Counted from the first letter of the stretch, positions 29,377-53,808 are shown. The stretch is 64,000 bases of DNA from Thermodesulfobacteriota bacterium (GCA_034189385.1 JAXHVD010000007.1:64001-128000); one strand, 5' to 3'. Made by a program: numbers and translations. Notes: a model not told the origin generated them from the sequence alone.

Positions 29377-29952
29377 ATGGGTGATGTGCACAAGAGTCTG
29401 GAGGTGGACACCGGTTTTGCAAACCTGGTTCAAGCCTCTGCCCGCCTGAATGTGAATGCCTGCTTTCAGTGCCGAAAATGCACGAACGGCTGCCCCGTCA
29501 CCTTTGCCATGGACATCTATCCGGACGAGGTCATTCGTCTGGTCCTGCTGGGCCAAAAGGAGCGGGTCTTGACGTGTAACACCATCTGGGTCTGCTCGGC
29601 CTGCGAGACCTGTACGACCCGGTGCCCCAATGAAGTGGATATTGCAGGCACCATGGATGCCCTAAAGGAGATGGCCGTGAAAGAGGGCGTCCAGATTCCT
29701 CAACCAAAGACCTATGCCTTTCACAAGGCCTTTTTGGACGATGTAAAAAAACGAGGCCGCATGTTTGAAGGAAGACTGATGCAGTCTTATCTTCTCAGTA
29801 GCGGTGAGCTTTTCAGGAAGGTCGCTGATGGCTCCATCAAGGAGGAGATGAGCCTTGGTTGGAATATGTTTAAGAAGGGGCGGTTGCCTCTTCTGCCAAA
29901 GGGTATCAAGGGGAAGAAGGAGATCAAGGAGATCTTGGGGTCCACGTCATGA
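29377..29952 (+). CDS. hdrC: Heterodisulfide reductase subunit C-like, 2x[4Fe-4S]
   Basis: CFQCRKCTNGCP, IWVCSACETCTTRCP; RBS AGGAGG. Confidence 0.9.
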   Translation: MGDVHKSLEVDTGFANLVQASARLNVNACFQCRKCTNGCPVTFAMDIYPDEVIRLVLLGQKERVLTCNTIWVCSACETCTTRCPNEVDIAGTMDALKEMAVKEGVQIPQPKTYAFHKAFLDDVKKRGRMFEGRLMQSYLLSSGELFRKVADGSIKEEMSLGWNMFKKGRLPLLPKGIKGKKEIKEILGSTS

Positions 29953-30812
29953 AGGTCAGCTACTATCCTGGTTGCTCACTGGAGAGCTCTGCCAGGGACT
30001 ATCAGGAGTCCATTGATGGGGTGTGCAAAAGACTCGGCATCGAGCTGGTGGAGCTAGAGGACTGGAACTGCTGCGGCGCCACGGCTGCCCACAGCCTCAA
30101 CCACCGGGCTTCCATCGAACTGCCAGCCCGCAACCTGGTCATTGCCGAAAAGGCTGGAAACGATCTCGTGGCGCCTTGCCCCATGTGTTTTAACCGGCTC
30201 AAGGCCGCTGAAAAGGCCCTGCTGCGAGAGCCGGGCCGATACCGGTATGCCATTGAAGGAAATACCAGGACCTGGGACCTGGCCGATTTCATGGCCCGCC
30301 CAGAGGTCCTTGATGTGATGGCATCTAAGGTGACCAATCCTTTGGAGGGGGTCCGGGCTGTTTGCTATTACGGATGTATGAGCAGCAGACCTCCTGAGAT
30401 TACGGATGCCAAAGACTGCGAAAACCCCATGAGCATGGATCTCATTGTCCGGCGTCTGGGAGGCGTGGCCATTGACTGGTCCTACAAGACAGACTGCTGC
30501 GGGGCGAGCCATGTGGTGGACAGGCCGGACATGGTCTTTAAGATGGTGGGCAGGCTCTATGAGCGTGCTCTTGAGGTGGGGGCCAACTGTATCGTGGTCT
30601 CCTGTCAGATGTGCCAGGCCAATCTGGATGTCTATCAGGACAAGATCGCTGCGGAACTGGGCATGGCAGTGGATCTTCCCATTGTCTATTTCACTGAACT
30701 CATGGGCCTTGCCATGAAAGAGCCGGGGGTGGCCACCTGGCTTGCCCGGCACTTTGTGGATCCTGTGAGGCTTTTTGAGGAGCAAGACCTCCTCGCAAAA
30801 AGGGGGGTATAG
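29949..30812 (+). CDS. hdrB: Heterodisulfide reductase subunit B (two CCG domains)
   Basis: YYPGCSL, DWNCCGA, YYGC, DCCGAS, CQMCQANLD. Confidence 0.93.
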   Translation: MKVSYYPGCSLESSARDYQESIDGVCKRLGIELVELEDWNCCGATAAHSLNHRASIELPARNLVIAEKAGNDLVAPCPMCFNRLKAAEKALLREPGRYRYAIEGNTRTWDLADFMARPEVLDVMASKVTNPLEGVRAVCYYGCMSSRPPEITDAKDCENPMSMDLIVRRLGGVAIDWSYKTDCCGASHVVDRPDMVFKMVGRLYERALEVGANCIVVSCQMCQANLDVYQDKIAAELGMAVDLPIVYFTELMGLAMKEPGVATWLARHFVDPVRLFEEQDLLAKRGV

Positions 30813-30815
30813 GCC

Positions 30816-31316
30816 ATGGAGACAGAACATGCCGCACCGGTGGCAAAAGTCGGCGGGGCCGACACGAAGGTCGGAGCAGTGGTGATTGTCGGTGGCGGCA
30901 TTGCCGGCATGCAGGCTGCCCTGGACGTGGCCAACTCAGGCTTCAGGGTCTATCTTGTGGAGAAGAACCCAAGTATTGGCGGTAACATGGCCCAGCTTGA
31001 CAAGACCTTCCCAACAAATGACTGCTCCACTTGTATGATATCGCCCAAATTGATTGAGGTGGCCAAGCATCCCAACATTGAGATCTTGTCCTATTCGGAG
31101 GTAGAGGGGATCTCTGGCGAGCCGGGGAGATTCAAGGTGAAAATCAGGCGAAAGGCCAGATACGTGGATGAATCTATCTGCACGGGGTGCGGAACCTGTA
31201 TGGACAAGTGTCCCGTTCAATACAGGCCTGATTTCCAGTGGGGCGCAAGAGGGACGCCAGAAGCAGACTTTGCGGGAAGAGAGGACATGAAGGACAGCAA
31301 TGGAAAAGGCGATTGA
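30816..31316 (+). CDS. hdrA: HdrA N-terminal fragment (FAD-binding beta-alpha-beta plus first half of the inserted ferredoxin)
   Basis: GGGIAGMQAALD, GGNMAQLDKTFPTNDCSTC, RYVDESICTGCGTCMDKCP, then stop. Confidence 0.88.
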   Translation: METEHAAPVAKVGGADTKVGAVVIVGGGIAGMQAALDVANSGFRVYLVEKNPSIGGNMAQLDKTFPTNDCSTCMISPKLIEVAKHPNIEILSYSEVEGISGEPGRFKVKIRRKARYVDESICTGCGTCMDKCPVQYRPDFQWGARGTPEADFAGREDMKDSNGKGD

Positions 31317-31785
31317 TGTTGATTTTGCAGAGATTGATGCCCTAATCGAAGAGAAATACCACAAAAACAAAGAGGCCCTGGTGATGATCTTACAAGACAT
31401 TACCGGGCGCTATAATTACATTCCTCCAGAAGTGCTCCCCCATGTGGCCAGAAAGCTCAGTCTTCCGCTGAGCAGGGTCTTCAGTGTTGCTACCTTCTAC
31501 AAAGCCTTTTCCTTGGAACCGAGGGGAAAATACATTGTCAGTGTTTGCACAGGTACGGCCTGTCATGTGAGGGGCGCCCAGGGTATTATGAAAAGCCTGT
31601 ATAAGGACTTGAAGATTAAGGAAGGCGAGACCACGGACGATCTGATGTTTACCCTTGAATCGGTTCGCTGCATGGGGTGCTGTGCCTCAGGTCCGGTGAT
31701 CCGTGTCAATAACGACACCCATGGAGGGTTGGACCCTGAGAGGCTCGTCCCCGTGATCGAGCAATACAAAGAGGGGAGTTCCTAG
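31300..31785 (+). CDS. nuoE: NuoE/HydC-like [2Fe-2S] subunit
   Basis: [28 protein letters not shown]. Confidence 0.9.
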
Positions 31786-31805
31786 TCCAAGAGCGTGCTA
31801 TTTTT

Positions 31806-34919: not shown

Positions 34920-34990
34920 TCCGTCCCACGAGAATCACCCCCAACCAACCTCCCTTTTTTCTTGACCATTCCTTGAAGAAGGCATATTGG

Positions 34991-35007
34991 TGTCTATAAA
35001 ATAGACA
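34991..35007. promoter_or_regulatory. Perfect palindrome, putative transcription factor site
   Basis: TGTCTAT-AAA-ATAGACA; near-copy at 39920-39936. Confidence 0.55.
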
Positions 35008-35043
35008 TTGCCTTTTTAAACGCCGAAAAGCCATGGGGTCGCC

Positions 35044-36576
35044 ATGACATCGGAAAAGGCCAGCAAGAGCAAATTCAGAATCGGCATTGTGGGCGGGGGA
35101 AAACGGTGTGAGACCATCATCGAGATGTCTCAACGCCAACGTCGCCCAAAGGTGAACGCTTCAGTAGTCATCATCGCCGAGCCTGATCCCCATTCCTCCA
35201 TCCACCAATATGCCCGGGACCTAGGGATTGAAACCACCACCGATCTAGGGGTGTTGGCTGAGCTAAAAGACCTTGATTTTCTACTGGACTTAACCAGTAG
35301 TCGAGACGCCTTGGTGCGCTTGTTGGTTCAGAGAGGTTCCAGGGTGCCGGTTCTTGACGCCGTGGCCTCTGATCTGCTCTACGACACCTTCCACGTCCAG
35401 AAAGAACTGATCGACACCCGCAGGTCCTTGAGACAAACCAAGACATTTTTAGAGCGTGTCATCAATAGTATCCAGGAAGAGATTCTTGTTATTGACACGG
35501 CGTTCAAGATAGTGGATGCCAATGATGCAGCCCTAAAGGCCGCAGGCCTGCCAAAAGAAGAGGTGGTGGGCAAATACTGCTATCAGGTGTCTCATCGATC
35601 TGAAAGCCCCTGTAGTTCCGAAGACCACCCTTGTCCCATGCAGAACGTGTTGAGAACGGGCAGCTATTCTCAGGCCACCCATAAGCACTATAAGTCAGAT
35701 GGCAGGGTTCGATACTATGAGCTCGTTCACTACCCCCTAAAGGATGAAAAGGGCGAAGTGGTTCAGGTCATTGAGATAGGCCGGGACATATCAGACGAAC
35801 TGGAAAAAAGGGTGGAAAGGCGGACCAAGGAACTCAAAGAGGATTATGCCCGGCTCGTTCAGGAAGACAGGATGATTTCCTTGGGAAAACTCATGTCTAG
35901 TGTGGTCCACGAAATCAACAACCCCCTTTCCGGCATCATTGGTCTGACCAAGTTGGTGCTGCGCAACCTGGAAGAGGGGAGAACTGATGACAAGTCAATA
36001 GGGACCATGAAAGAGCACCTTCGTTTGGTGGTATCAGAGACCACGCGAACCAGCAAGATCGTGTCCAATCTCCTTTTCTTCTCCCGGCAAATCAAGGTGG
36101 AAGTCCAAGACATTGATATGAACGAGGTGGTTGAGAGGGTCTTTAGCGTTGTTGGACATAAGGCCAAGCTCCAGAACATCAAGGTCTGCTTCAGGTTGGA
36201 CAAGGCGCTTCCCAGTGTAAAGGGAAATTTTGCACAGCTCGAGCAGTCTGTCATGAACATTGTCTTTAATGCCATTGAAGCCATGCCTGACGGCGGTGAA
36301 CTGACGATTGCCTCAGGCTTGGTCGACGGCGAGAGACATGAGGTATTTGTTGAGTTTGAAGACACGGGCTACGGGATCTCTCCGAAGAACCTGCCCTATG
36401 TCTTTGAGCCTTTTTTTTCCACCAAGGGGGAGGCCAAAGGGGTTGGCATGGGGCTGTCTGTGGTTTACGGCATCATACGGGACCACCAGGGGGAAATCAC
36501 AGTTAGAAGCGAAGAGGGGAAGGGGGCCTGTTTCACCGTCAGGCTCCCAGCCCATGAGGCCAAAAGGACTCAGTAA
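35044..36576 (+). CDS. Cytoplasmic sensor histidine kinase: Rossmann-like N-domain, PAS, HisKA and HATPase
   Basis: IGIVGGG, PAS with CYQVSH...PC...CP, HEINNPL, NAIEAM, DTGYG, FFSTK, GMGLSV. Confidence 0.9.
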   Translation: MTSEKASKSKFRIGIVGGGKRCETIIEMSQRQRRPKVNASVVIIAEPDPHSSIHQYARDLGIETTTDLGVLAELKDLDFLLDLTSSRDALVRLLVQRGSRVPVLDAVASDLLYDTFHVQKELIDTRRSLRQTKTFLERVINSIQEEILVIDTAFKIVDANDAALKAAGLPKEEVVGKYCYQVSHRSESPCSSEDHPCPMQNVLRTGSYSQATHKHYKSDGRVRYYELVHYPLKDEKGEVVQVIEIGRDISDELEKRVERRTKELKEDYARLVQEDRMISLGKLMSSVVHEINNPLSGIIGLTKLVLRNLEEGRTDDKSIGTMKEHLRLVVSETTRTSKIVSNLLFFSRQIKVEVQDIDMNEVVERVFSVVGHKAKLQNIKVCFRLDKALPSVKGNFAQLEQSVMNIVFNAIEAMPDGGELTIASGLVDGERHEVFVEFEDTGYGISPKNLPYVFEPFFSTKGEAKGVGMGLSVVYGIIRDHQGEITVRSEEGKGACFTVRLPAHEAKRTQ

Positions 36577-36612
36577 ACCAGGATCTTATTCTTGAATGGT
36601 GTAGGTGACGGC

Positions 36613-37962
36613 ATGAGATCAGAACTGAATATCATGGTGGTGGACGATGAGCTCATCGTGCGGGAATCCTTGAAGGGGTGGCTCGACAAATTTGGATATC
36701 ACGTTGACATGGCCGAGGACGCTCAAGATGCCCTGAAAAGACTAGACACAGAGAGCTATGACCTGCTCTTTGTGGATATCAAGATGCCAGGTATGGATGG
36801 CGTGGACCTCTTAAGGCGGGTGAAAGAAGAGCAGCCAGATGTCATGGTCGTCATGATCACGGCCCATGGGTCTATAGAGTCGGCCATTGAGGCCATGAAG
36901 GCCGGTGCCCGCGATTATCTCATGAAGCCTTTTGACCCGGAAGACCTTGAGCTCCTGATCGAAAAACTCGCACAGACGAAAAGACTGGTAGATCAGAACA
37001 GATGGTTAAGGGAATCGTACCAAGGCAAGTCCCGGTTTCAAGACCTCATTGGACAGTCTGGCCGGATGCAGGAGGTCTTTCAACTCATTGAGGATGTAGC
37101 GCCAAGTGAGACCCCGGTGCTCATTGTTGGGGAGACAGGTACTGGCAAGGAGTTGGTTGCAAAGGCGCTTCACGCATTGAGTCCCCGCCGTCACGCGCCC
37201 TTTGTGGCCGTCAATTGTGGGGCCTTTACCGAGACCCTGCTTGAAAGTGCCCTTTTTGGTCACGAGAAGGGGGCCTTCACAGGGGCCCATCATATGCAAA
37301 AAGGCCGCATTGAAATGGCCGAGGGGGGCACCCTCTTTCTGGACGAGGTGGGAGAGATCAGCCCCAAGATGCAGGTGGACCTTTTGAGGGTCTTGGCGCA
37401 GAAGAGCTTCTACCGTCTTGGCAATCCCAAAGCCATGACGGCTGACTTCCGGCTCATCTCCGCCACCCATAGTGATCTAGGCCACGCTGTTGAGCAAAGG
37501 GCCTTCAGGCAAGACTTCTATTACAGGATTAATGTGATTACCATCGCTGTGCCCCCCTTGAGGGAGAGGAAGGGGGACATAGAGCTTCTGGCCCTTCATT
37601 TTCTTGAAGGGTTTTGTCAGGAACTAAACAAGGACGTTAGGGGGATCAGCAGGGAAGCCCTTGAGATTATGACGAGATACGACTGGCCGGGAAATGTCCG
37701 GGAACTGGAAAACGTGATCGAGCGTGCTGTGGTCATAGGAAAGAAGCAGAAGATCACGCCTTCAGAGCTCCCGTTTCAAGATCTGGGCCTGGCCAGAAAA
37801 CCTGCTGTGGGCTCGCTGCGAGAGGTGGAAAAATCCCACATATCAGAGATGCTTGCAGCATGTGAGTGGAACATTGCCCACACTGCCAGCCTGCTGGGCA
37901 TCAATCGGACCACCCTGTATAAGAAGATCAAGAAATACGGTCTCAAACAGCCATCCTCCTAA
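36613..37962 (+). CDS. Sigma54-dependent response regulator (NtrC/AtoC family)
   Basis: REC domain (DIKMP), GETGTGKE, GAFTGA, WPGNVREL, Fis HTH. Confidence 0.93.
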   Translation: MRSELNIMVVDDELIVRESLKGWLDKFGYHVDMAEDAQDALKRLDTESYDLLFVDIKMPGMDGVDLLRRVKEEQPDVMVVMITAHGSIESAIEAMKAGARDYLMKPFDPEDLELLIEKLAQTKRLVDQNRWLRESYQGKSRFQDLIGQSGRMQEVFQLIEDVAPSETPVLIVGETGTGKELVAKALHALSPRRHAPFVAVNCGAFTETLLESALFGHEKGAFTGAHHMQKGRIEMAEGGTLFLDEVGEISPKMQVDLLRVLAQKSFYRLGNPKAMTADFRLISATHSDLGHAVEQRAFRQDFYYRINVITIAVPPLRERKGDIELLALHFLEGFCQELNKDVRGISREALEIMTRYDWPGNVRELENVIERAVVIGKKQKITPSELPFQDLGLARKPAVGSLREVEKSHISEMLAACEWNIAHTASLLGINRTTLYKKIKKYGLKQPSS

Positions 37963-38015
37963 AAGGATGGTGATCTATATACAACGATGCGTCACGTCTC
38001 CCTTTGCAGGGCCAC

Positions 38016-38615
38016 ATGAAAGCCCAAGACAAGATCGTAGCGATACAGCCCTTGGGTGACGTCAGAGGCGATATTATTGACACCGTTGCCTCGAGACTCG
38101 AGACTTTTTTTAAGATCCGAACGGATGTCTTCCAGGAACAAGCCATTCCAAAAGGGTCGTATCATCCTCAACGGGGCCAGTACAACTGCTATCCTATCCT
38201 ATCGTTCCTAAAGACACTAGGACCGGATCATGCCATCAAGACCATCGGTGTCACAGAGGTGGATCTATTTGTCCCTATCCTCACCTACGTATTTGGGGAG
38301 GCAGAGATGGGTGGCCATGGAGCGGTCATTTCTACATACAGGCTCGCCAGGGGCAGAGACCGGCAACCCATTCCTTCGGGACAGCTTTTCAAAAGAGTGG
38401 AAAAGATTGCTATTCATGAGCTGGCCCACACCTTTCGCCTTTCCCACTGCAAGGAAGATGGCTGCCTTATGGGTAGCTTCCCGGTTCTGAGCCGGATTGA
38501 TGAAAATGCCGTCTGTTTTTGCCGATATTGTGTAACCTTTCTGAAAGACGAGTATGAGAACCTGGGCATTCCTTGGGGGCAGGAGGTGGCCAATCAAGAC
38601 AAAAACACCCCGTGA
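38016..38615 (+). CDS. Archaemetzincin-family Zn metalloprotease (peptidase M54)
   Basis: DLFVPILTYVFGEA, HELAHTFRLSHC...CLM, FCRYC. Confidence 0.88.
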   Translation: MKAQDKIVAIQPLGDVRGDIIDTVASRLETFFKIRTDVFQEQAIPKGSYHPQRGQYNCYPILSFLKTLGPDHAIKTIGVTEVDLFVPILTYVFGEAEMGGHGAVISTYRLARGRDRQPIPSGQLFKRVEKIAIHELAHTFRLSHCKEDGCLMGSFPVLSRIDENAVCFCRYCVTFLKDEYENLGIPWGQEVANQDKNTP

Positions 38616-38708
38616 CAGATTGTCTCACGGGGTGTGTAGGTGCTGGACTTCAGAAGAGGCCTTGTGCCGATGCTGCGTGCGTTCTTCCCTCTGGGGCGGC
38701 TTTCCTTG

Positions 38709-39644
38709 TCACGTCAAAAGGAACTCGTGGGCGAGCCTTTCCCAGCCGATCTCTGGAATATTTCCGTAGATGTCGTCTACAGGAAAACCGCCGGCCGAGG
38801 CTGTTTCGCCATATTGCTCAGCTACCAGATTTCTCAGACGGGTGGCCTCGTTTTCCATCCACTCCGCACTTTCCGGCCCCTTCATAAGGTTTTGAAGATC
38901 CTTTTTCATTCTTGTGGGTTCAACGATGAAGAGCCAACCCATTTCGTAGGGGTATTTGTGCATGAGTTCCGGCCGTTCCAGGGCCCGTTGGTTCACGGCA
39001 GTGACCACGCCCCGAACAGGGGAGAGCATCTCTGCCTGACGGTTGTCTCGCTTCAGTATCCACCCCGTCTCATTTTGTACAACCTCGTCACCCAGAGACG
39101 GAAGCTCCAACCTTTTCTCAGGTCCAAAGAGCCTGGTCACGAAATCGTCTAGCCCCACGCGAATACGCGCGCCGTAATCGATAACGGCCCAGCTGTGGCC
39201 CCGATGGTAGTAGTGCCCTTCGGCCAAGGTGTATCCTGAGACATTCGTTAAGGTCACTGGTGAAACAGGGTCCATGGCTGAGACCTCATTTTCAATCAGT
39301 TGGTCGAATTCGCATTGGTGGCACTCAAAGGCGTTGGGGCAGATTTTGTAAGCCACGCGGCCCGAAAGCATATGGCGACATAGGCGCTGTCTCGCATCTA
39401 GGCCACTGAAATGCTCACGCCAACTCCTGATCCGCTCCTTCTTGGTCTTTAGCTCCAGGCCAGCACTGCGCTTTTGTTCATTCTCAGCCACGATCTTGGC
39501 CATAGATTTGTCAAAGGTACAGTTGATGCAGTCGAAGTTTCTGTCACAGAGCTTAAAGTCGATCACCCCTGCCTTCATCCATATACACTCATCTTGCGTG
39601 ACCTTGAGGCCCTTTAATGCTGACCCTTTTGCACTCGCTGTCAT
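38709..39644 (-). CDS. GcvH-like protein with two N-terminal Cys-rich repeats; lipoyl-lysine absent
   Basis: CIWMKAG...CxxxxxCxxCxFD twice; HSWA, RVGLDDF, SPVRGVVTAVN, PYEMGW; RBS AAGGAGG. Confidence 0.85.
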   Translation of the reverse strand: MTASAKGSALKGLKVTQDECIWMKAGVIDFKLCDRNFDCINCTFDKSMAKIVAENEQKRSAGLELKTKKERIRSWREHFSGLDARQRLCRHMLSGRVAYKICPNAFECHQCEFDQLIENEVSAMDPVSPVTLTNVSGYTLAEGHYYHRGHSWAVIDYGARIRVGLDDFVTRLFGPEKRLELPSLGDEVVQNETGWILKRDNRQAEMLSPVRGVVTAVNQRALERPELMHKYPYEMGWLFIVEPTRMKKDLQNLMKGPESAEWMENEATRLRNLVAEQYGETASAGGFPVDDIYGNIPEIGWERLAHEFLLT

Positions 39645-39691
39645 CGGCTTCTTCCTCCTTATGGACGTTTTCCCTTGTTGATGATTAATTA

Positions 39692-39707
39692 AGCAACAAT
39701 CGTGCCA
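39692..39707 (-). promoter_or_regulatory. Sigma54 (-24/-12) promoter of the GcvH-like gene
   Basis: Minus strand TGGCAC-GATTG-TTGCT, a consensus match. Confidence 0.85.
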
Positions 39708-40139
39708 TGACACCACCTTTTTGTATAACAAGTTGGAATATTGCACAATTATTCCAAAACAAAGACAAGAGGATGAAGCGGAGTACCGTCGCTTTTCGTG
39801 GCAGAAATAGACAGCAAGGACCCGTCCACGGGATTTATTATTTATCTTAATAGGTTATGGGGTATCTAGAAGTAGGCAGGCTTGTATAAATAATAAACAC
39901 TCGGATCGGCGCTATATTGTGTCCATAAAATAGACGCTTATTAAAGAAGCAGGACGGAGGCGTTACACATCTAGCTGATTTATCTTCTTGTTTTTGCCTT
40001 GATTTTGGTGGCTCTTAGCGATAGCTTTTGAAACATTGTCGCGGTAAAAACTCCTCTTGGGCCTGGAAAAGGACCTATGGTCGGAAAGCTTTTCAGGGAA
40101 GGGGCGAAAGGGGGAGACCGCAAAGGATTGGAGTATGGT

Positions 40140-41561: not shown

Positions 41562-41667
41562 GTGATGGCTTCCTAAAGGAGGCCTTTTTAATGCCCCTGT
41601 AAAAGAGGTCCCACCCTGGTGAAAAACGGGGTCCAGGAGAATCTTGGAGTCCTTTCCCAGAGCCACC

Positions 41668-43059
41668 ATGCGTATCCTTGTCATTGATGACGATCTCACC
41701 GTCTGCAAGAGCTGCCAGAAGATTATCTCAAAGGTCGGCTTTGGGGTGGACTATTCCCTAACTGGCCATGAGGCCCTCCAGAGAATGGAGGAGAGGGCCT
41801 ATGATGTCGTCTTCACGGACCTCAAGATGGCAGAGATGGGCGGCCTGGAAGTCCTTCGCTTCATCAGGGATAGAGACCCTGACATTGTGGTTGTCGTGAT
41901 TACTGGTTACGCTACCGTTGCTTCGGCTGTAGAGACTATGAAAACCGGTGCCTTTGACTATCTTCCCAAACCCTTCACCCCCGCTGAATTCAGGAGCGTT
42001 CTCAATAAGGCCGTTAAAGAAAGAAGGACCATTCTTATGAATCGGGAACTGGCCGCCCAACCGAGCATCACGGCAGGGTTTGATGGGATCGTTTTTGAAA
42101 GCCAGAAGATGCAAACGGCCTTCAACATGGTCCCCAAGGTGGCCCCTACAGACAGCAACGTCTTGATCGTGGGAGAAAGCGGTACGGGCAAGGAGTTGAT
42201 TGCCCGGGCTATACATAGATTGAGCAAGCGGAGGGAAGGCAAGTTTTTCGCTATTGACTGCGCCGCCCTCTCAGGCACATTGCTGGAAAGCGAGCTCTTT
42301 GGCCACGTGAGGGGGGCTTTCACCGGGGCCATTCAAGACAAGCCAGGGGTTTTTGAGGTGGCCAATCACGGCACGGTCTTCTTGGATGAAATATGCAACA
42401 TAAGTGTAGAAGTGCAGGCAAAGCTTCTAAGGTTCCTCCAAGAAAGGGAGTTCATGCCCGTTGGGGCCAGGGAGACGAAAAGTGTGGATGTGAGGCTTGT
42501 CTTTGCAACCAATAGGGACTTAAAAGACATGGTTGCAGAAGGCACCCTCCGTGAAGACTTCTACTATAGGATCTTCGTCTATCCCATTGGCATCCCGCCC
42601 CTGCGCCATCGCATGTCAGATACGCCACTGTTGGCTTATCACTTTTTGAAGAAGTATTCGAAGAGTTTTGGAAAGCCCGTCCAGTCCATTTCACGAAAGG
42701 CCATGGAGGCGCTGTGTCAATATGAGTGGCCTGGTAATGTACGACAACTGGAGAACGTCATACAGGCGGCAATCATTGCTTCTGACACAGAGGAGATCTC
42801 CACCAAAGACCTTCCTGAGTTTAGGGAACCCCAAAAAGTGCCGTCCCTGCCGCCTAGGACCAATGTGGAACTGAAACGACTCAAGAAAGAGCTCAGGGCG
42901 AGGACAGTCGAAAAGGTAGAAAGGGATTTTCTCCTTCATGCCTTAAAGAGAAACGACGGCAATGTGACCAGGGCGGCTGAGGATGTGGGCATGCAGCGGA
43001 GCAATTTCCAGGGACTTATGAGAAAGCACGGGATTGCTGTGAGGGCTATGAAACCATAG
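41668..43059 (+). CDS. Second sigma54-dependent response regulator
   Basis: REC domain, GESGTGKE, GAFTGA, WPGNVRQL, HTH. Confidence 0.93.
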   Translation: MRILVIDDDLTVCKSCQKIISKVGFGVDYSLTGHEALQRMEERAYDVVFTDLKMAEMGGLEVLRFIRDRDPDIVVVVITGYATVASAVETMKTGAFDYLPKPFTPAEFRSVLNKAVKERRTILMNRELAAQPSITAGFDGIVFESQKMQTAFNMVPKVAPTDSNVLIVGESGTGKELIARAIHRLSKRREGKFFAIDCAALSGTLLESELFGHVRGAFTGAIQDKPGVFEVANHGTVFLDEICNISVEVQAKLLRFLQEREFMPVGARETKSVDVRLVFATNRDLKDMVAEGTLREDFYYRIFVYPIGIPPLRHRMSDTPLLAYHFLKKYSKSFGKPVQSISRKAMEALCQYEWPGNVRQLENVIQAAIIASDTEEISTKDLPEFREPQKVPSLPPRTNVELKRLKKELRARTVEKVERDFLLHALKRNDGNVTRAAEDVGMQRSNFQGLMRKHGIAVRAMKP

Positions 43060-43306
43060 CCTCGCCCATGCCCATTGCCTCCCTCAAAGGCGGTTATTCC
43101 GGCAAAGGACTGAGCCACTCAAAGGGGATTTTTCTGAAAAGAACGCATATTTTTTTTATACACACAATATCCTCCCGATATAACGACTGAAATACTCCTT
43201 TTCACCTGCTGCTGCATACCGATACTATACATTTGACAAGACTGAACAACCTACTTGGAAAGATATTGTGCTAATAATAACAGCAGGTTATGCCTTCACT
43301 CTCTAG

Positions 43307-43322
43307 TGGCACAGGTATTGCT
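43307..43322 (+). promoter_or_regulatory. Sigma54 (-24/-12) promoter of the double-receiver gene
   Basis: TGGCAC-AGGTA-TTGCT, a consensus match. Confidence 0.85.
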
Positions 43323-43384
43323 CTAAATACTATAACAGACAGGCTGGACTGGAGTAAGGGACTTTTCACAAGGGAGGGATTCAC

Positions 43385-44461
43385 ATGGAAACTCAGGAAC
43401 CTAAGGTATTAGTGGTGGATGATGAGGTAACGGCTGGAAAGAGCATTGAAAAGGTCCTTGCCAAAAAGGGATTCCACATCGATTTTGCGGAAAGTGCAGA
43501 CGAAGGGCTCAATAAAATTGAAAAGGGACTATTCGAGCTGGTCCTCCTTGATATCATGATGCCTCAGGTCAATGGTATAGAATTGCTTAGGATCATAAAG
43601 GAGAGATGGCCTCATCTGAAGGTCGTCATGGTGACGGGCTATCCGTCCATTGAGACTGCTGTGGAGGCCACCAGGCTTGGGGCACTGGATTATATCTCTA
43701 AGCCCTTTACGCCCGATGAGCTGAGGGAAAAGGTGGATCAGGTCTTACAGGATACGGCTTCTGAAAAGGTGGTTCCCATTCGGCCTGTGGAAGAGGATGT
43801 GTCTGCCTCCGTTTGTCCGGTGTCTGGGCAGCAATGTGAGATCTATGCAAAAAAGGGCCGGCCGTGCAAGACCAAAGATGGCATATGCCCCAAGATCAAG
43901 AAGGCCCGGCTCAAGGCCCGGAAGAGGCGTCTGTCACCTGCCGAAGAGATTGGAAAATCAGCTATCGATATTGATATGCCCTTCGACCGCGACGAGGTGG
44001 CCAAATATACAGGCACAGCCTATGTGAATGCCTTAGACCGTTCAGATATGACCCTGGTGAGCTGGGAAGGGCCTGGTCAAGAGACGCCGGCCACCCTTTC
44101 TGAAATCCTTGTCGTTGACGACGAGGTGGTTGTGGGCAACAGTGTAAGAAAGATCCTTAAATCAAGAGGCTACCGCGTAGATCACGCCGAGACCCCAAGT
44201 GCTGCCATGGAGTTCCTATCGCAACGACCGGTGGACATGGTCCTGTTGGACATGAAGATCCCGGGGGTAAAGGGGTTGGATTTGCTTGAGACCATCAGGG
44301 AAGAGAATCCCACTGTGCCGGTGATCATGATCACCGGCTATGCTACTGTGGAGACAGCGGTCGAAGCCATCAAACTGGGGGCCGTTGACTATGTGCCTAA
44401 GCCCTTTACTCCTGATGAGCTTCATCAGGCCGTAGAACAAGCCTTTAGACGGGCTGCTTAG
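43385..44461 (+). CDS. Response regulator with two receiver domains and a Cys-rich linker, no output domain
   Basis: Two VVDDE...LLD...KPFTPDEL units; linker CPVSGQQC...C...CP. Confidence 0.88.
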   Translation: METQEPKVLVVDDEVTAGKSIEKVLAKKGFHIDFAESADEGLNKIEKGLFELVLLDIMMPQVNGIELLRIIKERWPHLKVVMVTGYPSIETAVEATRLGALDYISKPFTPDELREKVDQVLQDTASEKVVPIRPVEEDVSASVCPVSGQQCEIYAKKGRPCKTKDGICPKIKKARLKARKRRLSPAEEIGKSAIDIDMPFDRDEVAKYTGTAYVNALDRSDMTLVSWEGPGQETPATLSEILVVDDEVVVGNSVRKILKSRGYRVDHAETPSAAMEFLSQRPVDMVLLDMKIPGVKGLDLLETIREENPTVPVIMITGYATVETAVEAIKLGAVDYVPKPFTPDELHQAVEQAFRRAA

Positions 44462-44573
44462 GGTCTGAGGGTTGGAGAGTTGACAAGTGGGCCCCCTTGT
44501 GCAAAGGTCTCAGGCCGGGTGGCGTCACGATTCGGCTTCTGCCTTATGGTCGCTGCAGACCCATCTGAAATAG

Positions 44574-44603
44574 AGGCTTTGCCGTCAGGCAGAGCCTTTT
44601 TTT
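44574..44603 (+). terminator. Intrinsic terminator after the double-receiver gene
   Basis: AGGCTTTGCC-GTCA-GGCAGAGCCT followed by a T run. Confidence 0.75.
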
Positions 44604-44730
44604 GTTGTGCGGCCCGGCCACGCCACGCCTTTAGCTGGTAACTACGTGACCATGGTCACCTTCCCCGGTCTCTGAAAGTCAAGTCCCCCACTAGAGCCGG
44701 GAGATCGGATGGCGTAAACTGATAACTTCC

Positions 44731-44759
44731 TTGACAAAGAAGCGGCCTGCCTCTATATT
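44731..44759 (+). promoter_or_regulatory. Putative sigma70 promoter for the hdrA''-mvhD-metVF operon
   Basis: TTGACA-N17-TATATT. Confidence 0.65.
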
Positions 44760-44963
44760 GCGTATCTTTACGGCAAGTGCCGGGAAGCCTCATCTAGAGT
44801 GGTCCCAGCCGAATCAAGTCTCACGAATGCTTGACCGTTAGATCATCATCCGCATCATGGGTTTGGGTTAGAGAGTTCCACCGAGGCCAGAGAGCGCCTT
44901 TGGGGCCTCTGGGTTCCTCCCAGACCGGTATGAGCCAGCTTTCACCGGCAGGAAAAGGTTCTC

Positions 44964-48203: not shown

Positions 48204-48689
48204 ATGGAACAGGCCATGTCACAACCAGAAGAACACGAACGCACCAAGAAGGCCTTTGAGCCGAAGATCGAGGCCTTTGTCTGCACCTATTGCACCTATA
48301 CGGCTGCTGATATGGCAGGCTCACAGCGTTTGCAGTATCCTCCCACGGTGCGCATCGTCAAATACCTGTGTACTGGAAAGGTGGAAGTCCTCCACATCTT
48401 AAAGGCCTTTGAGGCCGGTGCCGATGCCGTGTTCGTGGGCGGCTGAGAGGTTGGCGACTGTCATTTCCTGGAAGGAAATCTCAGGGCTAAAGAACGGGTT
48501 GAGTACACGAAGGGCCTGTTGGATGAAATCGGACTTGGGAGGAACCGTTTGGAGATGTTTCACATTGGCGCCTCAGATGCCCCTCTGTTCGCCGAAGCAG
48601 TGGAGATCATGACGGAGAGGGCCAAGGAGGCAGGCCCCAATCCGTTTCGCCTGCTAAGTCTAAAGGGCGTCAAGAAGCGTTTGAGATGA
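48204..48689 (+). CDS. mvhD: MvhD/FlpD [2Fe-2S] protein, selenoprotein (UGA-Sec at 48444-48446)
   Basis: FVCTYCTYTAAD, LCTGKV, AFEAGADAVFVGG-UGA-EVGDCHFLEGN...RLEMF continues in frame to TGA 48687-48689; hairpin ATTTCC-TGGAA-GGAAAT after the UGA. Confidence 0.92.
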
Positions 48690-48737
48690 AGACGCCTTTG
48701 TAAGTAGTCACCATCTATTGAAGTAGGAGCAGTACCA

Positions 48738-49415
48738 ATGATTGTAGCCAAGAGAAAACCTTTCAAGGAGATCAAGGGGCTTGTTTCGGGCTCAAAGAAG
48801 ATCCTAGTTCTTGGATGCGGCACCTGTGTGGCTGTGTGCTTGGCTGGGGGCGAAAAAGAGGTCGCCCTCCTGGCCTCTCAGCTGAAGATGGCCCTGGCCC
48901 TTGAGGACTGGGATTTAGAGATTGATGAACTCACCATTGAGCGGCAGTGTGACAGGGAATTCATAGAAGAAATCAACCAAAAGGTGAATGTAGATGAATA
49001 TGACCTTATCCTTTCCACGGCCTGCGGTGCAGGGGTACAACTGGTCAGCGATGTGTTTGACCACAAGCCAGTGGTGGCGGCCCTTAATACCACCTTTATC
49101 GGCGTAGCAGAGGGCCCTGGCGTTTGGACGGAACGCTGTCGGTCCTGCAGCGACTGCGTCCTGGCCGAGACAGGGGGTATCTGTCCGGTAACGATCTGCC
49201 CAAAGGGGCTGGTAAACGGTCCCTGCGGAGGAACCCGACAGGGCAAGTGTGAGGTGGACCCTGAAAAGGATTGTGCCTGGACCCTCATTTACAATCGGCT
49301 AAAGAAGCTCGGCAGGCTCGATAGGATGGAGAAGATCCTTCCCCCCAAAAAGTGGAGTGCCCAGCAGCATCCGGCCACCGTCATCCATGAGGCCTATAAA
49401 AGGAGATATGAATAG
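48738..49415 (+). CDS. metV: Methylenetetrahydrofolate reductase FeS/Zn subunit MetV
   Basis: GCGTCVAVC, ERQCD, ACGAGVQ, ERCRSCSDC, CPKGLVNGPCGG, CAW. Confidence 0.9.
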   Translation: MIVAKRKPFKEIKGLVSGSKKILVLGCGTCVAVCLAGGEKEVALLASQLKMALALEDWDLEIDELTIERQCDREFIEEINQKVNVDEYDLILSTACGAGVQLVSDVFDHKPVVAALNTTFIGVAEGPGVWTERCRSCSDCVLAETGGICPVTICPKGLVNGPCGGTRQGKCEVDPEKDCAWTLIYNRLKKLGRLDRMEKILPPKKWSAQQHPATVIHEAYKRRYE

Positions 49416-49416
49416 C

Positions 49417-50289
49417 ATGGCAATATCCTTTGAAAAGGCACTGACATCAGGCAAGTTTTTGGCCACGGCAAGTGTGGACCCCCCCAAGGGGACAGCCCTT
49501 GAAGGCTTAGGCCAGCTTCTGGAAAGACTAAAAGGGGTGGTGGACGGCCTTGGGGTTTCTGACAACCATCAGGGGATCATGTGCATGAGCCCTTGGGCTG
49601 TGTGTAAACTGGCTCTGGAGGCGGGTCTGGAGCCCATCATGCACATGACCTGCCGGGATCGAAACCGGCTGGCGCTGCAGTCCGACCTCTTGGCAGCCGC
49701 TTCCTTAGGCATCAAGAATTTACTTTGTGTAAGCGGTGACCACGTTCGCTTTGGCGATCACGTTGACGCCAAGCCCGTTCATGACATTGATTCTGTTCAC
49801 CTTCTTGCAGCGGCGAAGGGCCTGGCAGAAGGAAAAGACATGGCCGGCAATGCCTTGGAGGCTGCTCCGACGCTCTTTCTTGGTGCTGTGGCCAACCCCG
49901 AAGCCGATCCCTTGGAGCCCCAGTTGATGAAGGTGGACAAGAAGATAAGGGCCGGGGCCTCGTTTCTCATCACCCATCCGGTCTTTAACATGGAAAACCT
50001 CAAGAGATTTATGGAACAGGTGAAAAAGAGCCCTGTGAAGGTCTTGGTGGGCATACGGTTGCTCGATCCTGAAGAGATAGCAACCTACAGGAATGGCGGC
50101 TGTCCTGGGCTCTTTGTTCCGGAGATGGTCCTTGAAGAGATCCAGGGGGCTGGCATAGAAAAATGTACAGAGATGGCAGCGGCCGCTGTCAAGGAGATCA
50201 AGGGCGCCAACCTGTGTGACGGGGTGCATGTCGTGGCGCCTGGGCACGAGGAAAGGATTCCAGAGATTCTAAAGGCTGGAGGGGTCTAA
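49417..50289 (+). CDS. metF: Methylenetetrahydrofolate reductase MetF
   Basis: PPKG, MTCRDRNRLALQSDLL, SGDH, KKIRAGA, GVH; start 49417 or 49408. Confidence 0.9.
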   Translation: MAISFEKALTSGKFLATASVDPPKGTALEGLGQLLERLKGVVDGLGVSDNHQGIMCMSPWAVCKLALEAGLEPIMHMTCRDRNRLALQSDLLAAASLGIKNLLCVSGDHVRFGDHVDAKPVHDIDSVHLLAAAKGLAEGKDMAGNALEAAPTLFLGAVANPEADPLEPQLMKVDKKIRAGASFLITHPVFNMENLKRFMEQVKKSPVKVLVGIRLLDPEEIATYRNGGCPGLFVPEMVLEEIQGAGIEKCTEMAAAAVKEIKGANLCDGVHVVAPGHEERIPEILKAGGV

Positions 50290-50317
50290 ACAGTGGAACA
50301 CGTCCGGGGAGCATTTT

Positions 50318-51607
50318 TTGAAGCAGGGTAGCAGGGAGCATTTGGCGAATCACAGCCCGAAGAAGGTTCTGGTCATTGGTGGCGGCATCGCTGGTCTCTC
50401 CGCAGCATGGGAGCTTGCGCGGCTCGCTATTGATGTGGACATTGTGGAAAAGGGCCCCTTTCTTGGCGGCCATGCCATTGGGTTTTGCTGCAAGGCTACA
50501 GACGAGTGTCAGAAGTGCGGCGCATGCTCGGTGACAGCAAGGCTTCTGGAGGTGGTCCAGGAACCTAGGATCACCGTTCACCTCAGGTCGGAGCTGAAAA
50601 GCGTCACCAGAAACAGCACCCATCGTTACGTCCTTTCGCAACGTCCCCTCTACATCGATCCGGACAGATGCACAAACTGCGGGCTCTGTTTTGATAAGTG
50701 CCCGGCGGCCGGGGCCATCGTCCGGGGATATGCCAGGAGTGATGGGTCCCTGTTCGCCATTGATGAAGCCCACTGTCTGCATTTTAAAGACGCAAGCTGC
50801 AGACTCTGTCAGGACGAATGCCCTGAGCAGGCCATTGATCTGGACCAGAGCGCGAGGCAGGTCTCTGGTGAGGCAGACGCTATCATCGTGGCCACTGGAT
50901 TTCAGGTCTTTGATGCCAAGGCCAGACCCCGATACGGCTACGGCATCAACCGGAACGTGATTACTGCCCTGGAACTGGAGCGGATGCTCAGAGACAAGGC
51001 ACAGGTCTTGCGCCCCTCAGACAACAAGGCTCCAAAGACAATCGCCTTTATCCAGTGCGTGGGAAGCCGTGATCACCAGCTACACCACGGGTTTTGTTCA
51101 CAAGTGTGTTGTGGCTACGCCATGCGCATGGCCGAGGCCATCAGCCACCGTGATCCCGGGGTGCAGATCTCCATCTTCTACATGGATATGCAAAACTGCG
51201 GAAAGAATTTCTCTACCTTCTATGAAAGGTGCAAAGAGCATATTCGCTTCGTGCGGTTCATGCCCGGGGACCTATTTCAAGAAGAAGGCGACCAGGTCAC
51301 CCTGTGCTATGCCACGGAAAGAGACGGGCGTCCTATGAAAGAGCCCTTTGATCTTGTGGTCCTTTCAGTGGGGATTATGCCTGGGGCGAGCAATGTGAGA
51401 CTGGCCCATATGCTGCAACTTGATCTTGACAAGCACGGTTTTTTTGCCTTCACAGATCCTATGGACAAGACAACCACAAAGCAAGACGGCATTTTTCTGG
51501 CAGGAACAGCCCAGGGACCAAAGGATATCGCCGATTCCATGGGTCAGGCAGGCCAGGCGGCCCAACGGGCAGCCCAATACCTGGGGGTGACGGCATGCCT
51601 GAAGTAG
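50318..51607 (+). CDS. HdrA/QmoA-like FAD-FeS protein
   Basis: GGGIAG, CKATDECQKCGAC, inserted ferredoxin, QCVGSRD, CSQVCC, GPKDIADS. Confidence 0.85.
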   Translation: MKQGSREHLANHSPKKVLVIGGGIAGLSAAWELARLAIDVDIVEKGPFLGGHAIGFCCKATDECQKCGACSVTARLLEVVQEPRITVHLRSELKSVTRNSTHRYVLSQRPLYIDPDRCTNCGLCFDKCPAAGAIVRGYARSDGSLFAIDEAHCLHFKDASCRLCQDECPEQAIDLDQSARQVSGEADAIIVATGFQVFDAKARPRYGYGINRNVITALELERMLRDKAQVLRPSDNKAPKTIAFIQCVGSRDHQLHHGFCSQVCCGYAMRMAEAISHRDPGVQISIFYMDMQNCGKNFSTFYERCKEHIRFVRFMPGDLFQEEGDQVTLCYATERDGRPMKEPFDLVVLSVGIMPGASNVRLAHMLQLDLDKHGFFAFTDPMDKTTTKQDGIFLAGTAQGPKDIADSMGQAGQAAQRAAQYLGVTACLK

Positions 51608-53292
51608 CGTCGCTGTCTGGTCAAGGGGCCCCCATGGAAGAGATCCCCATGGATACGACTGTCCTCATCATTGGGGGCGGATGGATCGGGATTAAGGTGG
51701 CCCAAGAGCTGATCGACATGGGCTATGGCGTTGTGCTGGCAGAGAGTGGCACCGCTATGGGAGGAGAACCCTCTGGGCATCCGTGGGCATCTGTGAAGAA
51801 AAAAGACCTCACAGCCCTTCTGGACAGTGTCAAAGAAGCCGACGGGATAGAGATTCTGACTGCCGCGACCCTCGTCTCTCTGACCGGGGTGCCAGGCCGC
51901 TTTCAGGCCCGCTTCGAACAAGGGGGCGAGTCCTTTGAGAGGGCTGTGGGCGCAGTAGTCGTGGCACTTGAAACGCAAAGGGTGTCGCTTGCCGAGGCCT
52001 ATGGGCTACGGGGGGATGAAAACATCCTCACCCAGTCCCAACTTGAACATGTCTGTGCCTCTGGTAACGGAGAAGCCCCGCTTTTCGGCGGTGGATCTAA
52101 GGATGTACTCTTTTTGGTGGGGCTCCAGCAGGAAGGGAACCCCGTGGTCATGGAACGGGCCATTCAGAGCGCCCTCCAGGTACAGGATAACGAAGGGCTT
52201 CAGGCAACGATTCTGGTTGGAAATGTGAAGCTGGCGCAGCATGGCCTGGAGACCCTTTATAAGGAAAGCCGAGAAAAGGGGGTGCTCTATTTCAAGCTCA
52301 GGGAAACTCCCCATATCAAACAGAATGGCGCCGATGTCTCTATCTCATTCTTCGACAATGTCATCCATGATCAGGTGGTGCTTAGGCCTGACGTGCTCGT
52401 GGTTGAAGAGGCCATTCGTCCTCATCCCCAGGCGTCGGAGGTGGCACAGGCCCTTGGGATTGTTAGGGACGGGGAGGGGTTCCTCCAGCCAGACAATGTG
52501 CACTTTCTTTCCACCCGCTCTAACAGGGAAGGGATCTACGTAGTTGGTCCGGCCCGCCTGCCTTCCAGCCTTGCCCAAGGGTGGAAAGACGCCCAAAACG
52601 CTGTGCTGGAAATTTGGCAATTACTGGGAAAGGGTAAAAGGGTCGTCCCTAAGGAAAAGGCAACAATTCACAGGGGCAAATGTACGATCTGTCTCACCTG
52701 TTTCAGGGTATGTCCTCACGGCGCCATCTATTGGGACAACCGGGCTGTCATATCACCGACAGCCTGTCAGGGCTGCGGCATCTGTGCCAGCGAATGCCCC
52801 ATGGATGCCATTCAGCTTGTGGACTTCAGGGATGATCAGATAGAAGACCAGATTTTGCAGGGGACCGCTACCAGTGTGGACGGGCCGCAGATGATCGCCT
52901 TCTGCTGCCAGAACTCTGCCTACGAGGCGGCTCAGATGGCCCGTATGACAGGGGACCCCCTGCCAAAGGGGCTTAAAATCATCCAGGTGCCTTGTGCCGG
53001 CAAGGTGGATGTGGACTATATCCTCACTGCCTTTAAGGCCGGCGTAGACGGGGTCCTGGTCTTGGCCTGTCATAAGGATAACTGCAAGTCGCAGCAAGGC
53101 AATACTTTTGCCCAGTGGCGCGTGGAGCACGCCAGAAGAATGCTTGAAGAAAGCGGACTAGAACAGGAACGTCTCCTTTTTGCCACGATGGCATCCAACA
53201 TGCCTATAGAGTTTGTGCGTATCACAAAGGGGATGGAAGACAAGCTCAACCAACTGGGACACAACCCCATAAGAAAAGGGGCCGCTGCATAG
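51595..53292 (+). CDS. HdrA-like/ferredoxin/MvhD fusion (QmoB-like architecture)
   Basis: GGGWIG, CTICLTCFRVCP, CQGCGICASECP, AFCCQNSAY, VPCAGKV, LACHKDNC. Confidence 0.85.
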   Translation: MPEVASLSGQGAPMEEIPMDTTVLIIGGGWIGIKVAQELIDMGYGVVLAESGTAMGGEPSGHPWASVKKKDLTALLDSVKEADGIEILTAATLVSLTGVPGRFQARFEQGGESFERAVGAVVVALETQRVSLAEAYGLRGDENILTQSQLEHVCASGNGEAPLFGGGSKDVLFLVGLQQEGNPVVMERAIQSALQVQDNEGLQATILVGNVKLAQHGLETLYKESREKGVLYFKLRETPHIKQNGADVSISFFDNVIHDQVVLRPDVLVVEEAIRPHPQASEVAQALGIVRDGEGFLQPDNVHFLSTRSNREGIYVVGPARLPSSLAQGWKDAQNAVLEIWQLLGKGKRVVPKEKATIHRGKCTICLTCFRVCPHGAIYWDNRAVISPTACQGCGICASECPMDAIQLVDFRDDQIEDQILQGTATSVDGPQMIAFCCQNSAYEAAQMARMTGDPLPKGLKIIQVPCAGKVDVDYILTAFKAGVDGVLVLACHKDNCKSQQGNTFAQWRVEHARRMLEESGLEQERLLFATMASNMPIEFVRITKGMEDKLNQLGHNPIRKGAAA

Positions 53293-53373
53293 CGGGCCAA
53301 AAATCTCACTTGCCTTCAGAAGAGGTGACTTGTCCTCGCTCCGGCCTTGAAGCGGGTGGAGGGGAAATCCGGC

Positions 53374-53808
53374 CTAGGAGACTTCTGTTTTCTTGAGCTC
53401 AGGGTTGGCTTCTATAAGGCGTGAGGCAATCTGTTCACATCTGTAGACCTGGCACTCTTGTTCAATCTTCCTGAGCTCTTCCACAAAGGAAGGCGGGACG
53501 TAGCCCTCTGCCAGGGCGATCTTCTGAAGGACCTCCATGATCTGTTTGAATCTCACATCCTGGGGGCACACAACTGTGCAGGTGTTGCAAAGGGCACAGT
53601 ACCATATAGCAGTATTTCCCAGAAGCTCATCCTTGTAGCCGAGGTTGATCATCCGGATAAACCTTCTCGGGTCAAAGTTTGTAACAGCCTGATGGACAGG
53701 ACATGCTGCGGAGCACGTCCCGCAGGTGTCGCAATTGGTGGGGAGCCTCCCCTCCAAATACTGGGCGATTTTGAACTTGAAGCTCTTGTCGATTGCAGGT
53801 TCTGCCAC
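53374..53808 (-). CDS. HdrC-like 2x[4Fe-4S] protein
   Basis: CDTCGTCSAACP, IWYCALCNTCTVVCPQDV; GTG start after AGGAGG. Confidence 0.85.
   Translation of the reverse strand: MAEPAIDKSFKFKIAQYLEGRLPTNCDTCGTCSAACPVHQAVTNFDPRRFIRMINLGYKDELLGNTAIWYCALCNTCTVVCPQDVRFKQIMEVLQKIALAEGYVPPSFVEELRKIEQECQVYRCEQIASRLIEANPELKKTEVS

Follow-up and report, generated by a model that had tools for sequence, protein, structure and literature searches.

Whether an Hdr gene cluster that encloses NuoEFG-like genes and continues into metV and metF encodes an NAD(P)H-fed, electron-bifurcating methylene-tetrahydrofolate (THF) reductase is the question raised by a locus of a Thermodesulfobacteriota bacterium, studied here within a window of 64,000 nt (JAXHVD010000007.1:64001-128000; region studied 29377..53808, all positions in window numbering). 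The named genes, including the convergent hdrC-like gene, were found in the order given by the first-pass annotation, as judged by scans of open reading frames (ORFs) and Pfam domains (Table 1), although that annotation missed both the double nature of HdrA'' and the absence of the catalytic glutamate from MetF. Because the neighbouring MetF has lost a key catalytic residue, the locus is probably not a plain methylene-THF reductase complex; the reading favoured here, with a probability of about 0.45, is that of a regulated accessory HdrABC–MvhD redox hub that would serve redox balancing, carry a MetF of changed function and leave the cell's main methylene-THF reductase elsewhere.

The architecture of the locus is that of a double-HdrA gene split within its inserted ferredoxin domain by a nuoE-nuoF-nuoG(N) cassette and, later, by regulatory genes. 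Locus L142, of the same genus, carries the same operon with an intact HdrA of 1020 aa, of which HdrA' corresponds to residues 32-143 (72% identity) and HdrA'' to residues 117-1020 (79% identity); since both match this single intact ortholog, the two pieces derive, on alignment, from one gene. The break point lies inside the inserted ferredoxin domain (the low-potential arm), where the second Cys motif of NuoG stands in place of the first of HdrA, suggesting entry of the cassette through a Cys motif common to the two proteins. Related arrangements include a 1488-aa GltD-inserted HdrA ahead of mvhD-metV-metF in the same operon (L136), a contiguous version with an 18 bp gap from nuoF to the fusion gene and no insert (L013), and single-chain HdrA'-NuoG-HdrA'' proteins of 1228 aa (L039, L054); genomes G010 and G003 have the first half of the window's locus followed by the insert, with both halves on one contig, 22 kb apart, in G010. 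The bifurcation signature (Glu356/Lys409 equivalents) is kept in both HdrA units, as E293/K346 by alignment to 5ODC and as E795/K837 by motif, and MvhD and an HdrB with two CCG motifs complete an HdrA-type bifurcating module. The Bfu side is represented by BfuC, a BfuB FMN core with B1, B2 and B5 ligands, and BfuA with A1, A2 and A4, at what we take to be their ligand positions. The proposal that an NADH module is genetically wired into HdrA is thus borne out by the match of the pieces to one intact ortholog, by the proximity of NuoF to the fusion gene and by the fusion of HdrA' to NuoE in other loci, as quantified below.

The most consequential departure from a reductase lies in MetF (residues counted from position 49411), in which the first-strand Glu of Thermus thermophilus MetF aligns with Ser21 in a profile alignment, and His189 occupies the position of the TQ motif; T. 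thermophilus Glu18 is presumed equivalent to Escherichia coli Glu28. An Hdr-type reductase carries the catalytic Glu28 and the folate-binding Gln183, here Ser and His. Ser is found in 9/9 full-length orthologs from the loci, the window included, and among the best 120 of 1376 homolog matches, to which all MetF tallies refer, Glu is present in 0/79 with at least 62% identity (71 Ser, 3 Thr, 2 Gly, 1 His, 2 gaps), Gln183 being replaced in 77 of the same 79. Glu is kept in 16/18 sister-band homologs (53-61% identity) and 23/23 below, and in a quick tree the Ser group forms one clade nested among Glu forms (Shimodaira–Hasegawa approximate likelihood-ratio test 99). The modelled fold is that of a methylene-THF reductase (MTHFR; predicted local distance difference test, pLDDT, 88.7; best match 1V93, TM 0.77), the model yielding the fold alone and no side-chain positions. 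Replacement of Glu28 by Gln in E. coli MetF reduces activity to <0.012 turnovers per min, with NADH or methyl-THF still bound, and changes at Gln183 raise the Km >250-fold (PMC11094777). Both residues are kept in the two MetF proteins of the Wood-Ljungdahl cluster on contig C23 of the same genome, and in those of L047 and L089. The claim that this copy reduces or oxidises methylene/methyl-THF is accordingly not supported, in view of the Glu28Ser and Gln183His replacements and the two intact metVF pairs of that cluster. A literature search, not aimed at this point, turned up no paper on the Glu-less MetF clade. A second divergent kind of MetF, with Glu kept and Gln changed to Thr or Pro, occurs beside Nuo/MetVF clusters in L051, L052, L057 and L089:4255.

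A second departure concerns ferredoxin. The gene is a mosaic: residues 1-400 of NuoF are 70-94% identical, bin by bin, to the B3/B4-bearing NuoF of L013 and L039, and over residues 501-1037 NuoF-GltD resembles the NuoF-GltD fusions of five members of the genus, with 70-89% identity. GltD starts after residue 558, where the B3/B4 ferredoxin domain would begin; B3/B4 are absent here and present in the C23 paralog, L013, L039 and L047, the GltD type of NuoF accounting for 7/79 modules. The GltD domain bears a YRR motif, which we take as a sign of NADP(H) use. The BfuB core has its best PDB matches in 9MQX, 7T2R and 7Q4V (E below 1e-200), and the GltD domain corresponds to the NADP(H) domain of StnC/NfnA (9BOV_A, 8OH5_C). 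Ferredoxin binds at the B3/B4 domain, and NfnABC that has lost B4 shows almost no bifurcation (PMC12018979). Because GltD replaces this domain, the proposed ferredoxin coupling at NuoF is unlikely and was not upheld, and a test of ferredoxin coupling could consequently fail even if the complex exists. The prediction of selenocysteine (Sec) in MvhD fared better: the in-frame TGA falls at the Cys position of other MvhD proteins and is kept in 5/5 close orthologs examined, and both SelB and tRNA-Sec are encoded in the genome, although the hairpin behind the TGA is weak alone (z -1.12, not significant).

The cassette itself is widespread, portable and not MetVF-specific. A protein search with the first 300 residues of the fusion returned 1626 clusters at E 1e-80 or better, the 120 listed covering the entire query; loci that are 83-87% identical to the window over these residues are mostly Desulfobacterales or Deltaproteobacteria. 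Mapping of 100 fusion ORFs (26 genome loci, the best 80 of 353 metagenome matches and 20 fetched regions, with three duplicate rows dropped and some duplicates possibly remaining) placed NuoF upstream of the fusion in 79 loci, at no more than 250 bp in 70, no more than 3 kb in 8 and at 8 kb in 1; for 21 ORFs NuoF was not seen in the available flanking DNA. An HdrA N-terminal piece lies upstream of the fusion in 55, fused to NuoE in 25. Downstream of the module (62 loci with downstream DNA) stand metV in 9, mvhG in 17, fdhB/flxC-like genes in 15, further hdr genes in 15 and others in 6, with Flx-type NAD domains confirmed in 6/6 of the fdhB/flxC-like genes scanned; as 6 of the 9 metV loci are close orthologs, the 9 are not independent. 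This genome holds a second copy (L004, G000:C23:181819-192000), a contiguous split HdrA-NuoEFG with B3/B4 kept and Sec in HdrA'' and MvhD, which precedes fdhA and then an F420-type fdhB. The notion that the module is MetVF's own pyridine-nucleotide input or output is therefore not supported, its partners being many and including FdhAB in this very genome. The syntenic run is contiguous up to metV in L013, L025, L047 and L089, which disposes of the objection that the halves are never co-located in relatives.

Contig C62, which contains the window, belongs to the 4.13 Mb, 90% complete genome of a sulfate reducer that encodes dsrA, dsrC, aprA-qmoABC (C1), Mvh hydrogenase and the full Wood-Ljungdahl cluster of C23, in which two further intact metV-metF pairs occur with HdrA and a GltD-MvhD fusion. 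Within that contig the two metVF pairs are parted by response regulators and a kinase, beside the GltD-MvhD fusion and a Bfu-type Fdh (L002-L003, G000:C23:30138-60981). The locus itself holds no hydrogenase or formate dehydrogenase catalytic subunit, as first annotated: no molybdopterin, NiFe or FeFe catalytic domain was found among the scanned ORFs of 29377-53808. A class II benzoyl-CoA (Bam-like aromatic) reductase was rejected, there being no BamBC tungsten module in the locus; three AOR-family genes are found elsewhere in the genome. The organisms carrying the locus are uncultured.

Table 1. Features of the split hdrA locus and its regulatory insert, in window numbering.
Feature	Position	Strand	Remarks
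HdrC, two [4Fe-4S]	29377..29952	+	Pfam Fer4_8/17; NCBIfam HdrC models below cut-off
HdrB, both CCG motifs intact	29949..30812	+	PF02754 twice; Cys motifs at 7, 41, 77, 141, 183, 219
HdrA' (166 aa): N-terminal FAD-binding half of TrxR domain 1 and first Cys motif of inserted ferredoxin domain	30816..31316	+	
NuoE/HydC/BfuC, [2Fe-2S]	31300..31785	+	PF01257 E 5e-49
NuoF/BfuB core (residues 1-558) fused to GltD/NfnL-like FAD domain, 1037 aa	31806..34919	+	
PAS histidine kinase and sigma-54 response regulator (insert)	35044..37962	+	same position in G010, G003, G007
Archaemetzincin-family peptidase (insert)	38019..38615	+	PF07998; NF033823 below cut-off
GcvH-like protein, Cys-rich N-terminus, Asn at lipoyl-Lys position (insert)	38709..39644	-	PF01597
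Second PAS kinase, second sigma-54 regulator, double-receiver protein (insert)	40077..44461	+	
Terminator-like hairpin, then sigma-70-like promoter of second half	44572..44759	+	
NuoG-N/BfuA (A1, A2, A4; no A3) fused to remainder of double HdrA (hdrA''), 1075 aa	44964..48191	+	
MvhD with selenocysteine	48204..48689	+	in-frame TGA 48444-48446
MetV	48738..49415	+	PF12225 E 1e-38
MetF, Ser at catalytic Glu28 position, His at Gln183	49417..50289	+	
HdrA-like protein, CKAT family, Arg replacing bifurcation Lys	50318..51607	+	
Degenerate HdrA-like domain fused to MvhD	51595..53292	+	without CVG...CxxxCC cluster motif
HdrC-like, convergent, loosely linked	53374..53883	-	

The first-pass description of a first half followed by a second half identified both halves correctly, but omitted approximately 10 kb of intervening regulatory genes (34920-44963). 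Recurrence of this insert in G010, G003 and G007, together with the monophyletic Ser-MetF clade and purifying selection, rules out an assembly artefact or one-off decay. Ahead of the second half lie a terminator-like hairpin of 12 pairs (44572-44599) and TTGACA-17-TATATT (44731-44759), an 11/12 match to the sigma-70 consensus that is a consensus match alone, promoter-like sites numbering 18 against 10.2 +/- 3.6 in shuffles; the TTGACA is conserved in 7/7 aligned upstream regions of the second half. In the same seven regions it is followed by a conserved non-coding motif (ATCAAG..CTCAC..TTGAC..T.AGAT; window 44731-44870), without Rfam match and possibly a regulator site or leader. Intergenic gaps inside each half are -17 to +49 bp. 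Loss of the lipoyl Lys in the GcvH-like protein was judged by eye against the Lys-bearing GcvH of L078; a role as lipoyl substrate of HdrB is unlikely here, the Lys being absent, yet the Lys-bearing GcvH of L078 follows mvhD. Other loci with Hdr/Nuo modules (L075, L078, L100, L103, L128 and L187) also have a GcvH-like protein, or its Cys-rich N-terminal portion, close by.

In the favoured reading of a redox-balancing hub, HdrA' and HdrA'' would reassemble, the FMN of NuoF would be the site of reaction for NAD(H) and the FAD of GltD that for NADP(H), and electrons would pass via BfuA clusters A1/A2/A4 into the low-potential arm of HdrA, which the FAD of the first TrxR domain would couple both to HdrCB, acting on a disulfide (probably that of DsrC), and to an MvhD port, the putative MetV docking site. 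DsrC as substrate of HdrB, and its potential, are our assumption. In relatives with a Glu-bearing MetF (L047, L089), NAD(P)H and dithiol/disulfide would be coupled to methylene/methyl-THF; taking one arm at -320 mV, HdrCB at about -140 mV (as in methanogens; PMC9304861) and the port at -200 mV, the overall reaction would lie near equilibrium and could run in either direction. In the lineage of the window, MetF has probably retained its flavin but little or no folate turnover, so that the most likely task of the hub is to balance NAD(P)H with the disulfide pool; MetV-MetF, together with the HdrA-like pair, would form an attached iron-sulfur/flavin arm of changed function, and folate conversion would fall to the two intact metVF pairs of C23. 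The arm assignments are taken from the structure of benzoyl-CoA reductase, in which the C-terminal ferredoxin domain and MvhD receive electrons from a HydBC-type module, the inserted domain being the low-potential exit (bioRxiv 10.64898/2026.04.10.717634). Because the module here is fused into this low-potential exit while the gene after mvhD varies, we infer that the substrate port is on the side of MvhD, a placement to which the structure prediction for the L047 proteins, given below, lends weak support.

A bolder and doubtful extension of this reading would make the HdrA low-potential arm an exchangeable socket, here holding two modules in series, opposite to benzoyl-CoA reductase and using NADH and NADPH without ferredoxin, with a conserved MetF that has traded folate catalysis for a new substrate or role. 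Within one genus the socket is found empty, or filled with GltD, with Bfu, or with Bfu in which GltD replaces its ferredoxin domain, and with four insert states of a single operon at hand, comparison can test what the low-potential arm does.

Several observations weigh against the hub with an altered MetF. Selection on the Ser-type metF is purifying (21 pairs, 20 of them usable, give a median dN/dS of 0.12, rough as dS is near saturation); Asp23, two residues past the Ser, is kept in 71/79 of the clade and might substitute as the acid; and Asp110 and His78 are retained. Together these features argue against a dead enzyme. The remaining objections concern the unity of the hub: an Hdr-type (6S) reductase would be expected to form a single transcription unit, whereas an opposite-strand gene in the 10 kb insert and the terminator- and promoter-like sites leave the two halves looking separately transcribed, and other Desulfobacterales families have metVF with the HdrA-like pair and no cassette, so that MetV may dock on that pair instead.

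The strongest competitor, though an unlikely one, is a single supercomplex performing NAD(P)H-dependent methylene-THF reduction (or methyl-THF oxidation) by flavin-based bifurcation, with MetF active through the nearby Asp or another acid. Besides the purifying selection on metF, this is favoured by the mvhD-metV-metF order shared with Moorella, by the contiguous copies with intact Glu and Gln in L047 and L089, and by Sporomusa pull-downs that tie MetV to HdrA and MvhD to MetF (PMC9430772). Structure prediction with L047 proteins, not those of the window, gives MetV on HdrA''-MvhD a weak score of 0.56 against 0.36 for the best control, with at least 95% of contacts agreeing between runs and partner pLDDT of at least 86, a score to be read against a mark reached by 116/157 solved and 2/215 mismatched pairs, of which just 18 solved pairs and both mismatches lie at or below 0.60. 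Set against these are the absence of Glu28 in 79/79 and replacement of Gln183 across nearly all of the clade, the two intact metVF copies in the Wood-Ljungdahl cluster, and the lack of NADH-dependent methylene-THF reduction by the Moorella complex itself in the available account (PMC6295475).

Somewhat less probable still is the division of the locus into two machines, one being an Hdr-Bfu hub made up of HdrCB, split HdrA, NuoEF and MvhD, the other an older MetV-MetF/HdrA-like pair/HdrC-like unit that would act as a soluble QmoAB-like adaptor independent of the hub. In 151 genomes of the class, a set that includes the window, 17/25 loci have metV-metF immediately ahead of the HdrA-like gene, at least one of the other 8 ending at a contig edge; no split hdrA cassette was seen in 20 extended HdrA-like-pair regions, and all 13 MetF read there keep Glu and Gln. 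On these grounds metV-metF-HdrA-like pair-hdrC-like is a unit of its own, and most hub loci are without metVF. Many Desulfobacterales families carry it as a stand-alone operon, metV-metF-HdrA-like-HdrA-like/MvhD-hdrC-like (243 aa), with intact MetF (L180-L192, L199), which looks like a soluble QmoAB-type adaptor for MetVF; the HdrA-like pair of the window, which lacks the bifurcation Lys, was rejected as QmoAB proper, with 29% identity to the genome's own QmoA and with aprA-qmoABC lying on C1. The convergent HdrC-like gene is present in L012 and L142, and none was seen at this place in L009 and L016. Separation is opposed by the recurrence of the full part set, in shuffled order, in L020, L029/L030 and L132, and by the placement of hdrA''-mvhD-metV-metF-HdrA-like pair behind one promoter-like site with gaps <50 bp. 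Least probable, and by some distance, is a sensor: a catalytically dead MetF would bind folates and, jointly with the GcvH-like protein, which is not lipoylated, and the insert's two-component systems, report the one-carbon or redox state, with minor electron flow. In its favour are the ligand binding retained by E. coli Glu28Gln (PMC11094777), a kinase-regulator-peptidase-gcvH cassette that also flanks a metVF operon in another family (L187), and, close to the module in other loci, the fusion of GcvH-like domains to receivers or to HdrC-like or NuoG-N domains. Against it, the pterin-binding Gln183 is changed too, no domain connects MetF with signalling, and the contiguous ortholog L013 is without the insert. 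For this copy, redox balancing is accordingly preferred over all three.

An Rfam scan of the window gave 0 matches and a tRNA search found none. Outside the locus, large secreted-looking proteins (peptidase C25, DUF7453, TSP3-repeat) are encoded at 4187-12526; an OMPdecase/HUMPS-RraA fusion and a SIS-domain gene, probably hexulose-6-phosphate synthase and isomerase (names inferred), at 19715-21597; a bacterial threonyl-tRNA synthetase whose editing domain is of the archaea type (PF08915) at 22225-24096; and, at 25672-28170, pheS with no pheT downstream, approximately 1.5 kb free of long ORFs and a RimK-like gene. A GXGXG-domain (glutamate-synthase-like) gene lies upstream of Hdr-MetVF clusters in L047 and L149.

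The intact-MetF copies of L047 and L089 are better candidates for a bifurcating reductase than that of the window, and the Glu-less clade implies that metF gene counts overstate Wood-Ljungdahl capacity. Much of the background is already in print: the feeding of Moorella HdrA with NADH, the occurrence of NuoEFG next to metFV, and, for benzoyl-CoA reductase, the coupling of Bfu with HdrA. A pyridine-nucleotide input is consequently not new: the HdrA of Moorella, whose first TrxR domain encloses a GltD domain, oxidises NADH (PMC9430772), and in 2021 the placement of NuoEFG ahead of metFV received the name 'X type' (PMC8515935). Reverse bifurcation has been proposed for methyl-THF oxidation (PMC6295475, PMC6895022), and metF-HdrABC has been noted in seep sulfate reducers (PMC10553843) and marine Chloroflexi (PMC5736913). 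In the available text of each source, a Bfu survey names HdrA as partner for Bam alone (PMC9304861), HdrABC-MvhD and NuoEFG are treated separately (PMC13343851), and an HdrA-NuoEFG fusion is not described (PMC11237513, PMC5109826). The literature search found no paper on a NuoEFG cassette splitting hdrA, a search of mostly non-subscription papers that does not establish absence from print.

Among known systems, the locus is a conserved variant of Hdr and Bfu assemblies, and this copy a poor reductase candidate. The closest is the MetFV-HdrABC-MvhD ('6S'/Hdr-type) reductase of Moorella thermoacetica and Sporomusa ovata (PMC9430772, PMC8515935), which shares the order hdrC, hdrB, double HdrA, mvhD, metV, metF and whose gene set (hdrCBA, mvhD, metV and metF together) is complete here with hdrA split; MetVF is reported to bind loosely to Hdr and MvhD in Sporomusa (PMC9430772). 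As in Moorella HdrA, both TrxR domains keep the Glu/Lys signature and an NAD(P)H module interrupts the first, but the window differs in the three-gene Bfu cassette splitting hdrA, GltD on NuoF, 10 kb of regulators, a MetF without Glu28 and an extra HdrA-like pair behind. The Bam[(BC)2DEFGHI]2 complex (bioRxiv 10.64898/2026.04.10.717634) is alike in its HydBC-type module, fused HdrA dimer, Sec MvhD and HdrBC-like unit, although BamI feeds the C-terminal ferredoxin domain and BamF (a mid-potential entry), whereas BfuA of the window is fused into the inserted ferredoxin domain (the low-potential arm), BamBC and the ferredoxin domain of NuoF are missing, and the second FAD site has Lys where BamE has Gln. 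With the Bfu family (HydABC, StnABC/NfnABC, Wor-Bfu; PMC9304861, PMC12018979) it shares BfuC, the BfuB core and a Type 2 BfuA, but lacks B3/B4, carries GltD on BfuB rather than BfuA, and has BfuA fused to HdrA. The predicted 'X-type' MTHFR of Desulfobacterales and Chloroflexi (Yi et al. 2021, PMC8515935) places NuoEFG homologs beside metFV, and a form with the NuoF-GltD fusion is seen in L051 and L052; as described in the available text it has no Hdr, whereas in the window the Nuo genes are built into HdrA. Finally, HdrL of the complete-oxidising sulfate reducer Desulfobacterium autotrophicum (PMC2702500) is a large HdrA with a pyridine-nucleotide site beside mvhD, similar to that of L136 in the same operon as the window, and is, unlike the window, a single chain with GltD alone and no NuoEFG.

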